Shown here: in pieces, positions 9,298 to 10,832 of the stretch | Layout of the letters: each line of letters begins with the position of its first letter | How positions within the stretch are numbered: the stretch's first letter is position 1 | Source: Nannocystales bacterium | Lineage (GTDB): Bacteria > Myxococcota_A > Polyangia > Nannocystales > Nannocystaceae | Assembly (NCBI GenBank): GCA_050633305.1 | Contig: JBOEGF010000018.1 | Span: forward strand, 352,001-416,000 | DNA: 64,000 nt | Reading direction: 5' to 3' | The notes under the pieces: model-generated | Told to the model about the DNA's origin: nothing | The model's input: the letters and a program-made list of their open reading frames with translations, nothing else | Database searches by the model: none | Translations under genes and position numbers: made by a program

Positions 9298-9795
9298 GTG
9301 GCCAACAACCTTGCCCGGGAGGCCGTCGATTTCGGCTTTCGCACCGCCTACAAAACGGCGCACCGGATGCTCCGTGCCTACTGGGGGATTCGCAACCCGC
9401 AGACCCACGGGGCCCTGATCGCCGCCTGGTACGACGGCCAGATCTTGCTGGTGAAGAACTCGTATCGGGCCGAGTACACGTTGCCCGGTGGCTACGTACG
9501 CGCCGGCGAAACGCCGGAACAAGGCGCGGCTCGGGAGCTTCGCGAGGAGGTCGGCGTCGACGTTTCGCCCGCTGACCTGAGTCTCGCCTACGAAGACACC
9601 AAGCCCTACGAGAACCGTCGCGACCACGTGACCATCTGCGAGGTCAAGCTCGAGCGGCCGATCGAGCTCGCGGTCGACAACCGCGAGGTCGTTTGGGCGG
9701 GATTCCGACGCCGCGATGAGGTGCTCTCGCTGCCGATCGTTCCGCACCTGCGCGAGTACCTGACCGCATCCCAAGAGCGCACCGGCGACAATTGA
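9298..9795 (+). CDS. NUDIX hydrolase
   Basis: Nudix box LPGGYVRAGETPEQGAARELREEVG. Confidence 0.92.
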   Translation: MANNLAREAVDFGFRTAYKTAHRMLRAYWGIRNPQTHGALIAAWYDGQILLVKNSYRAEYTLPGGYVRAGETPEQGAARELREEVGVDVSPADLSLAYEDTKPYENRRDHVTICEVKLERPIELAVDNREVVWAGFRRRDEVLSLPIVPHLREYLTASQERTGDN

Positions 9796-9878
9796 AAGAA
9801 CCTGAGCTCGAGCGGGGTGGAGACCCGACCGAGCCCAGGCTCTTTCCTGGGCGGAGGCTTCGCGCTGGGCGAAGCCTC
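9794..9878. terminator. Tandem hairpins (9794-9846 and 9854-9878), likely terminating both NUDIX and the opposing ncRNA
   Basis: gaaagaacctgagctcg...cgagcccaggctctttc and gaggcttcgc-gctgg-gcgaagcctc. Confidence 0.6.
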
Positions 9879-10118
9879 GGTCTTTCAAGTTAAGCTATCG
9901 GCGTAAGGCTAAGGCAAGCGGAGAAAAGCTAAGTCGCGCGGTCGTTCAAGCTAAGCGTCAGATTCAAGGACAAGTCAGGCTAGGTTCGAACTCGGTCGGG
10001 AAGAGTTAAGTCGGCCGGGTTCGATCGAGGCTAAGGTCAGGTCAAGGTCCGCGGAGAGGTCGTTTTTCAAGGTAAGCCAAGGAGTAAGCAGGTAGGCCAG
10101 GCGAACTCTTGCGGATAC
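9794..10118 (-). ncRNA. Putative sigma54-dependent small RNA with repeated CUUR motifs and two 3' hairpins (no known family recognised)
   Basis: Non-coding, low-GC segment; ~17 YAAG on + strand in 9886-10089; 17-bp stem 9794-9846 fully paired only on the minus strand (2 G-U pairs); 10-bp stem 9854-9878; sigma54 promoter upstream. Ends are inferred. Confidence 0.65.
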
Positions 10119-10128
10119 CAAGACTGTC

Positions 10129-10144
10129 TGCAGACGGTGTGCCA
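10129..10144 (-). promoter_or_regulatory. Sigma54 (-24/-12) promoter TGGCAC-ACCGT-CTGCA
   Basis: One mismatch to consensus TGGCAC-N5-TTGCW with exact GG/GC spacing; points into the CUUR-rich segment. Confidence 0.75.
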
Positions 10145-10253
10145 AACCGTCAGCAATACAGAATCGTTGAGAAAAACCGTCAAACGAGTCCGAGTGCCCC
10201 GATCCGCGCACCCGGGGCCATGACGCAAATGCCCGAACTGGCGCCGATCGGGT

Positions 10254-10275
10254 TGTCAGGCCTGACATCGATGTC
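10254..10275. promoter_or_regulatory. Overlapping perfect palindromes TGTCAGGCCTGACA and GACATCGATGTC (candidate enhancer-binding-protein sites)
   Basis: About 110-130 bp upstream of the sigma54 promoter, separated from it by an A/T-rich tract (10151-10184). Confidence 0.5.
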
Positions 10276-10355: not shown

Positions 10356-10832
10356 ATGCCTTCTCAGGATCCCGAACGCCGCCGCGCACCCCGATACAAC
10401 GTGACGTTCTCGATGGTGTGTGACTCCGGCGATGCCTTCGGCAGCGCGGTCGTCGTCAACCTCAGTGACTCCGGCGCCCTCGTGCAGACCGAAGATGACT
10501 ACGCTGAGGGGGACAAGCTGTCGTTGGTTCCCGTGGGGGAGGCGGGGGACATCCTGTTCGACCTACCGGCCACGGTTGTCCGCATCCTCGATGACCCCGG
10601 TCCGGGCCGCATCAAGCGCTACGGCGTACGGTTTTCGGGACTGACACTTCCACGGATTCGCGCGCTTCGGACGTTGTGCGCGGCGATGCCTCCGACGCCG
10701 GACGAGCTTCCGGAGTCGGAGGCGCCGCAGGGCGGTCCCGCGCGTAGCGGCAGCGAGCCCCATTTTCGAATTCGAACGCGGGTCGGGGGGAGTCCGGGGA
10801 CGCCTCGGTGGGCGAGGCGACCCTTCGGATAG
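10356..10832 (+). CDS. PilZ domain protein (c-di-GMP receptor)
   Basis: RRRAPR (RxxxR) and NLSDSG (D/NxSxxG) motifs. Confidence 0.88.
   Translation: MPSQDPERRRAPRYNVTFSMVCDSGDAFGSAVVVNLSDSGALVQTEDDYAEGDKLSLVPVGEAGDILFDLPATVVRILDDPGPGRIKRYGVRFSGLTLPRIRALRTLCAAMPPTPDELPESEAPQGGPARSGSEPHFRIRTRVGGSPGTPRWARRPFG

Follow-up and report, generated by a model that had tools for sequence, protein, structure and literature searches.

A candidate sigma54-driven non-coding RNA with a CUU-RR-CUU repeat array in Nannocystaceae

What is encoded between the convergent NUDIX hydrolase gene and the divergent PilZ gene of a Nannocystales bacterium? The two genes, whose preliminary identification Pfam confirmed, lie in a 64,000-nt stretch of DNA (positions 352,001 to 416,000 of contig JBOEGF010000018.1, assembly GCA_050633305.1), which we call the window. 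The genome, G000, is 11 Mb in size and 92% complete. A preliminary description, made from the letters alone, had read the gap between them as the gene of a sigma54-driven RNA on the minus strand that titrates a protein. We find that the gap most likely encodes a non-coding RNA of marine myxobacteria, roughly 330 nt long, judging from its sequence and from that of relatives. Comparison among genomes strongly supports a sigma54-driven, minus-strand RNA with a conserved promoter and repeat array, and one transcript-like contig lends it weak support.

Promoter, repeat array and 3' end

The predicted elements, followed by the neighbouring genes, are:
9792..10118, minus strand: predicted non-coding RNA, type A copy, about 327 nt (the promoter sets the inferred 5' end; the hairpin and one contig ending at 9792 set the 3' end)
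10129..10144, minus strand: sigma54 -24/-12 promoter, identified from sequence and kept in 6/6 genus relatives
10264..10275, minus strand: distal putative enhancer, a GAC-N6-GTC palindrome with the sigma54 box 131 nt downstream; candidate sigma54-activator site
10222..10233, minus strand: proximal putative enhancer, a degenerate GAC-N6-GTC about 89 nt upstream of the box
9886..10101, minus strand: weakly structured repeat body with 17 CUUR, 23 CYUR and 6 URRCUU (from counts and folding)
9854..9878, minus strand: penultimate 10-bp hairpin; a similar hairpin with altered stem letters occurs in 5/6 genus relatives and is absent in one
9794..9846, minus strand: terminal hairpin with hardly any variation in the genus; it probably terminates transcription in both directions, serving the convergent NUDIX gene as well
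9298..9795, plus strand: NUDIX hydrolase gene (Pfam), convergent with the RNA; it marks type A loci and adjoins 9/32 loci tested
10356..10832, plus strand: PilZ gene (Pfam), divergent; it adjoins 3 of the 9 NUDIX-linked loci, so it is not a conserved neighbour

The sigma54 box of the preliminary description is present as TGGCACACCGTCTGCA at 10144-10129 on the minus strand, and from its position we assume a transcription start near 10118, by the -24/-12 rule. A putative two-site enhancer had been missed. In both copies of the RNA gene in G000 (the second, type B, is described below), GACATCGATGTCA lies 131-133 nt upstream of the box, with a second GAC-N6-GTC-like site at 89 nt. The distal site recurs at 131-133 nt in relatives, and together with the sigma54 box it retrieves the family without any help from the array. 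Across loci, the enhancer-to-box distances peak at 86-91 and 129-134 nt. Among the 122 sigma54 boxes of the genome, the paralog's promoter has the best enhancer score and the studied promoter the second best; this ranking is partly circular, because the matrix was trained on these same loci. An IHF-like word occurs at one fixed position in 14/66 promoters and in 0 control windows.

The genome encodes 33 sigma54 activators, none of which has a GAC-N6-GTC site upstream, and no activator gene lies beside the RNA loci, where the neighbours are NUDIX/PilZ, argB or argC, lolA and others. Two possible leads to the activator were dropped: the promoter of the pilin cluster carries another palindrome, and NmpR has a different binding site (PMC11841059). 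Elsewhere in G000, five sigma54 promoters with the same enhancer word (C2:202307, C8:215569, C47:22438, C8:114142 and C20:65279) precede lipoprotein-like genes that carry acidic low-complexity linkers and that are possibly a regulon of the same activator. Another enhancer and sigma54 box, at C7:221190 on the plus strand, has no called gene downstream and may belong to a further small RNA that lacks the array.

Behind the studied promoter, the composition is extreme. On the plus strand of 9886-10089, YAAG occurs 17 times (9 TAAG and 8 CAAG) and CTTR 0 times. The count agrees with the preliminary one, as does the expectation: the frequency of YAAG in the genome predicts 0.85 per 204 nt, as compared to 2.0 in mononucleotide shuffles and 4.6 in dinucleotide shuffles, and 0 of 5000 shuffles of either kind reached 17. 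(About six related YAGG had also been reported there; there are six only over 9886-10102, and three lie wholly inside 9886-10089.) Counted on the minus strand, the 17 CUUR compare with about 1.4 expected. This is the densest CTTR cluster of the whole genome. Most of the other CTTR-dense windows are antisense to lysine-rich coding repeats.

In the bodies of 30 loci, UGGCUU was counted 92 times, as compared to 7.8 in dinucleotide shuffles, and none of the 30 loci lacks it; the same comparison gives 78 vs 6.9 for CUUGGC, 66 vs 17 for UGACUU and 33 vs 3.5 for UAGCUU. In contrast, GGA (28 vs 66) and CUC are depleted. The autocorrelation of CUU has a peak at 5 nt (232 vs about 85) and none at 3 or 6, and in 49 bodies the 5-nt-spaced CTTGGCTT / CUUGGCUU were counted 101 times vs 7 for the codon-spaced CTTGGCCTT / CUUGGCCUU. 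The array is thus borne out, but given the enriched words and the 5-nt spacing its motif is better written as CUU-RR-CUU or URRCUU than as CUUR. The order and number of the repeats vary freely among loci.

As had been proposed, the body is weakly structured: its predicted folding energy (-34.5) is weaker than that of its own shuffles (-45.9 +/- 4.3), and CUUR is less paired than the remaining body in 45/49 loci. The 17-bp stem at 9794-9846 favours the minus strand, where it gains two G-U pairs and folds at -38.9 kcal/mol vs -31.5 on the plus strand. Three results are less favourable to this hairpin or strand: the minimum free energy structure of the whole 331 nt pairs the hairpin arms at long range and lacks the terminal hairpin; a simple terminator scan does not list it; and the folding z-score of the whole region is better on the plus strand (-4.2 vs -2.9). 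In the alignment of the type A hairpin, 0 of 22 pairs are changed on both sides, so it yields no covariation, because it is almost invariant in the genus. The type B terminators are more informative: they have an invariant UGGUC loop in 25/25 rows, 8/12 stem pairs changed on both sides and a covariation of 0.43 vs 0.25 in shuffles (with six rows one column out of register). The conservation of the penultimate hairpin was judged by eye in the alignment, and RNAalifold did not predict this hairpin. A GGUGC motif lies near the 3' end in 55/66 loci (a figure with no background count). A mobile repeat was rejected, as the terminal hairpin is single-copy in the genome.

The RNA appears to be non-coding. 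Between 9792 and 10118 it has no ATG and no AxGGA, neither of the two overlapping open reading frames (ORFs) at the locus matches Pfam, and no ORF or ribosome site is conserved across loci, where GGAG is almost absent. A coding gene was rejected on these grounds.

Signs of transcription were sought in public data. A small share of the window is present in 17 RNA-labelled runs, which come from 13 studies, and four of these runs were examined by contig alignment. In run X1, which is RNA by guess only, a 273-nt contig with a depth of 526 covers 9792-9858 exactly and 9922-10001 with 7 differences, while the flanking contigs have depths of 2-6. The contig stops at 9792 and continues with an A-rich tail, followed by what we take to be an Illumina adapter. 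This fits an abundant minus-strand RNA that ends at the terminal hairpin, and we regard it as a weak hint.

A paralog and relatives across the class

The preliminary description had also missed a second copy in the same genome, which we term type B (L049; L-numbers denote individual loci and f-numbers families of the class). It lies on the minus strand at C22:47781, within G000:C22:47226-47914, and would yield about 520 nt of RNA. Type B shares the enhancer, and 12 CTTR fall within the 240 nt at its start; additional conserved elements lie in its 3' part, and its terminator has a CCUGGUCC loop. It adjoins argB and, on the other side, a convergent unnamed gene; in both types the next gene is convergent. 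(In most type B loci the convergent gene encodes a conserved 311-aa protein with no Pfam or NCBIfam match, as at L009:1740-2675.)

By BLAST, type A was found in 6/6 genus relatives and 0/33 other genomes, and type B in 6/6 genus relatives and one other genome. Both paralogs, with the same enhancer and sigma54 promoter, are present in 7/7 genomes of the genus. Even so, the BLAST alignment of type A is limited to the 3' end in the four more distant genus relatives, and between distant relatives the promoter and the 3' end can be aligned but the bodies cannot.

Searching 72 genomes of the family (Nannocystaceae) for the enhancer and the sigma54 box alone gave 30 loci in 22 genomes, and 0 with the reversed pattern. 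In 29/30 of these loci, the next 240 nt contain 6-18 CTTR on the promoter strand, as compared to 0-2 on the opposite strand and 0-3 upstream; the remaining locus lies ahead of a short ORF that has a ribosome site. The conservation of promoter plus array that the preliminary description had predicted for relatives therefore holds. Searching for the box and repeat words gave 32/72 genomes, with 2 control hits, and the union of three pattern searches covers 41/72 genomes and 12/17 genera (most of these loci were viewed; related genomes are not independent). Several matches were dropped as false because the promoter precedes an ORF (L035, L154, L175) or because there is no array (L057, L093), and others because of a tandem repeat (L150), a missing enhancer (L136) or near-identity to L054 (L026). 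At L035 (G045), where the array is missing, the same enhancer and sigma54 box drive a small ORF (about 25 codons) whose ribosome site is strong. At L066 (G050), the box at 1501 is followed by a short hydrophobic ORF of about 50 codons and then by a long CUUR array, whose tandem units measure about 50 nt each; this might be a dual-function version.

Shorter versions with the same enhancer appear in three other families of the class. The pattern matched 9/23 genomes in f15, 5/15 in f2, 1/1 in f22 and 1/54 in f19, with no control match. After viewing 16 of these loci, we consider the f19 match and one f15 match to be promoters before ORFs; the rest carry 5-11 CTTR, and the f15 and f2 loci form units of 150-170 nt that end in a terminator. 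Some of these carry elements of their own. In f15 (L172-L174 and L176-L179, upstream of lolA), a hairpin with a nearly invariant 23-nt loop lies just after the sigma54 box, and part of that loop recurs in L181 (f22); the three of these loci that were scanned had no match in Rfam. In f2 (L088-L090, L156, L158 and L159), an invariant GUGCUCCUUCUCUUGU lies just before the terminator; it is complementary to Shine-Dalgarno sequences and is a possible base-pairing seed.

Outside the class, 0/209 genomes match the pattern. Across 185,579 species genomes, a strict pattern that recovers 17/49 known loci found 43 loci. All 19 loci with both the enhancer and at least 7 CTTR are labelled Nannocystaceae, Nannocystales, Nannocystis, Plesiocystis, Myxococcota, Myxococcales, Deltaproteobacteria or unclassified, and the enhancer is present in 0 of the 21 loci with fewer than 7 CTTR. 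From these labels we take the family to be Nannocystaceae. The scan found none in records of Myxococcus or Sorangium, which at a sensitivity of 17/49 is no proof of absence. Cultured carriers of a copy are Nannocystis radixulma and Plesiocystis pacifica.

Proposed protein titration and its rivals

Why would an RNA keep its promoter and its words but not their order? Many copies of one short motif, in a weakly paired RNA and in no conserved order, are a general hallmark of protein-titrating small RNAs, and the RNA shows it. If CsrB and CrcZ are taken as a guide, the promoter, the order-free but strand-specific array, the lack of coding and the terminator are arranged as in an RNA to which one protein binds in many copies. 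We propose that a sigma54 activator bound at the two GAC-N6-GTC sites would turn on the roughly 330-nt untranslated RNA and its roughly 520-nt paralog. The RNA would then present many single-stranded CUU-RR-CUU sites, each for one small RNA-binding protein; the likeliest candidates are the single-RRM, glycine-rich proteins. Once the signal is on, the RNA would pull this protein off its other RNA ligands or gather it into a complex, as CsrB does with CsrA and CrcZ with Hfq. We consider a sigma54-induced multivalent protein-titrating RNA to be the probable explanation, and give about half as much credence to the version in which the partner is an RRM protein.

The case for RRM comes from gene content. 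In G000 there are four RRM genes, two of which encode Gly/Arg-rich tails, as well as one cold-shock gene, one csrA and a KhpA-like gene (KH proteins were searched in G000 only), and Hfq was not found in it (the control matched in 5/14). RRM was found in all 4 carriers tested from other families, cold-shock in 3 of them, Rho in 2 and CsrA in 1. Overall, the five carriers have RRM in 5/5, cold-shock in 4/5, CsrA in 2/5 and Rho in 2/5, so RRM is the only tested protein family in all five. Incomplete genomes weaken any single absence. CsrA, Hfq and Rho were rejected as partners: csrA is present in G000 and G542 but was not found in G170 (100% complete), G513 or G439, and the RNA-binding domain of Rho was not found in G000, G170 or G439, although G170 is complete. 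The preliminary description had named cold-shock, RRM and Rho proteins; with Rho not found in three carriers and cold-shock not found in one, RRM remains.

Several observations weigh against titration by this RNA. First, the X1 contig is one contig from a relative, in a run that is only guessed to be RNA, and neither ends nor strand nor level can be read from contigs; in the other three runs only the hairpin is covered, at a depth of 4-10 and with flanks that differ from those of the locus. Second, the A/U content of CUUR explains part of its lower pairing. Third, RRM genes are also in G021, a family genome with no detected RNA, so their presence does not discriminate. Fourth, mRNA leaders show no enrichment of URRCUU (over 2936 leaders from crude gene calls, UGGCUU was counted 22 times in sense and 21 times in antisense), so the mRNA-side signature seen for CsrA is missing; a mild sense excess in an earlier leader count was not upheld by the control. 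Finally, the near-invariant type A 3' hairpin and GGUGC suggest a second function.

The strongest alternative is a base-pairing RNA whose seeds are the 3' motifs (GGUGC, the UGGUC loop, the type A hairpin with its UCUCCACCCC loop, and GUGCUCCUUCUC in f2) and whose repeat body only loads a chaperone that replaces the missing Hfq, or is trimmed as in the maturation of Pxr. The 3' motifs, which the preliminary description had missed, are the most conserved letters, and complementarity to Shine-Dalgarno sequences is seen by eye in the f2 motif and in the type A loop. Precedents are the RRM-bound base-pairing small RNAs of Bacteroides (PMC11697453) and Pxr, which is sigma54-driven and processed (PMC10217877), and Hfq is not found in G000. 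However, complements of the seeds have no clear peak at start codons, the longest perfect mRNA complements (17 and 19 nt) are within or just above those of shuffles (15-18 nt), CUC is depleted in the bodies, and the repeats are common to all types and families, unlike the 3' motifs. We think that this explanation is rather unlikely.

It is much less likely still that the repeats themselves pair with purine-rich RNA, such as the lysine-codon-rich (AAG) messages of histone-like proteins. The other CTTR-dense windows do lie antisense to Lys-rich repeats, and perfect 13-nt complements of the RNA occur in 113 genes, as compared to 72 for shuffles, but the 5-nt spacing is out of codon register (CTTGGCTT vs CTTGGCCTT, as above) and the same array occurs in genomes of 36-39% GC. 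The least probable reading, by a little, is that there is no RNA gene at all and that the array is a set of protein sites on DNA, a compositional oddity behind a sigma54 promoter or a small-peptide leader: direct evidence of expression is thin and L066 does have a short ORF before its repeats, but this would not account for the strict strand bias downstream of the promoter in 29/30 loci, the covarying terminator stems with their G-U pairs, the lack of a conserved ORF or ribosome site and the convergent next gene in both types.

If we return to titration, a broader scheme is conceivable, which we hold tentatively: a class-wide circuit of predatory bacteria without Hfq, where a single conserved sigma54 activator induces RNAs that titrate single-RRM, glycine-rich proteins, or condense them into granules, via CUU-RR-CUU. 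Very few proteins (CsrA and Hfq/Crc) are known targets of bacterial protein-sponging RNAs. If true, this circuit would add a third sort of sponge to those for CsrA and Hfq, and would reveal a motif that bacterial RRM proteins bind. The carriers appear to lack Hfq, and often CsrA and Rho. The RNA could serve as a ready bait for naming the protein and the motif. Also, because only the promoter, the word content and the terminator are kept, such RNAs escape BLAST and Rfam; a promoter-plus-word search finds them.

Relation to known regulatory RNAs

No Rfam model comes near its gathering score, whether at the locus, at the paralog or in the 20 loci scanned, as the preliminary description had expected for the locus. 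In the part of the literature that was searched, which includes few subscription journals and took in PMC13370968, PMC8538405 and bioRxiv 10.1101/2025.09.11.675593, we found no published account of such an RNA in these bacteria. The small RNA family is real and apparently undescribed, although MXnc1 of M. xanthus or the non-coding RNA survey of Whitworth and Swain (cited in PMC8538405) could hold a relative.

Pxr of Myxococcus xanthus is sigma54-driven, has a stem-loop 3' end and has paralogs in some genera (PMC5568312, PMC10217877), as does the myxobacterial RNA described here. However, Pxr is 108 nt with three stem-loops, lies beside the activator gene nla19 and is reported from Cystobacterineae (same papers), whereas our RNA has a long unstructured repeat body and no activator gene alongside. 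The Pxr model (RF01812) had no match in the whole-Rfam scans of the locus, the paralog and the 20 loci. (It had none in G000 and 121 phylum genomes either, which is uninformative without a positive control.)

FopS and GibS of Bacteroides are paralogous small RNAs tied to the single-RRM protein RbpB in an Hfq-less host (PMC11697453), and we likewise have paralogous RNAs, an apparently Hfq-less bacterium and a putative single-RRM partner. FopS RNAs are base-pairing RNAs of 65-70 nt with one seed, and there the protein titrates the RNA (PMC11697453); in contrast, our RNA is long and multi-motif and would titrate the protein.

CrcZ and CrcY of Pseudomonas, the CbrB- and sigma54-driven titrators of Hfq/Crc, share with it a sigma54 promoter, upstream activator sites, a length of 300-500 nt, a repeated single-stranded motif and, in some of our loci, the IHF-like element. 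The difference is in the parts: the A-rich AANAANAA repeat motif of CrcZ/CrcY occurs 0 times in our RNA, and Hfq is not found in G000. The enhancer is GAC-N6-GTC and not a CbrB site (TGTTAC-N12-14-GTAACA; PMC8871633).

CsrB, CsrC and RsmZ are intergenic and poorly conserved, with several paralogs that share an activator site, a repeated short motif and an intrinsic terminator (PMC11882849). Our RNA has all of these features, with the shared activator site upstream. It differs in its motif (CUU-RR-CUU, with 2 GGA at the locus vs 6 expected), in its sigma54 promoter, in the carriers (csrA was not found in 3/5) and in having no Rfam match. Thus, it seems to work like CsrB/RsmZ or CrcZ while its motif, its partner genes and the Rfam scans set it apart from both, and it is not Pxr. 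Our best inference is that this small RNA family belongs to the protein-titrating kind.
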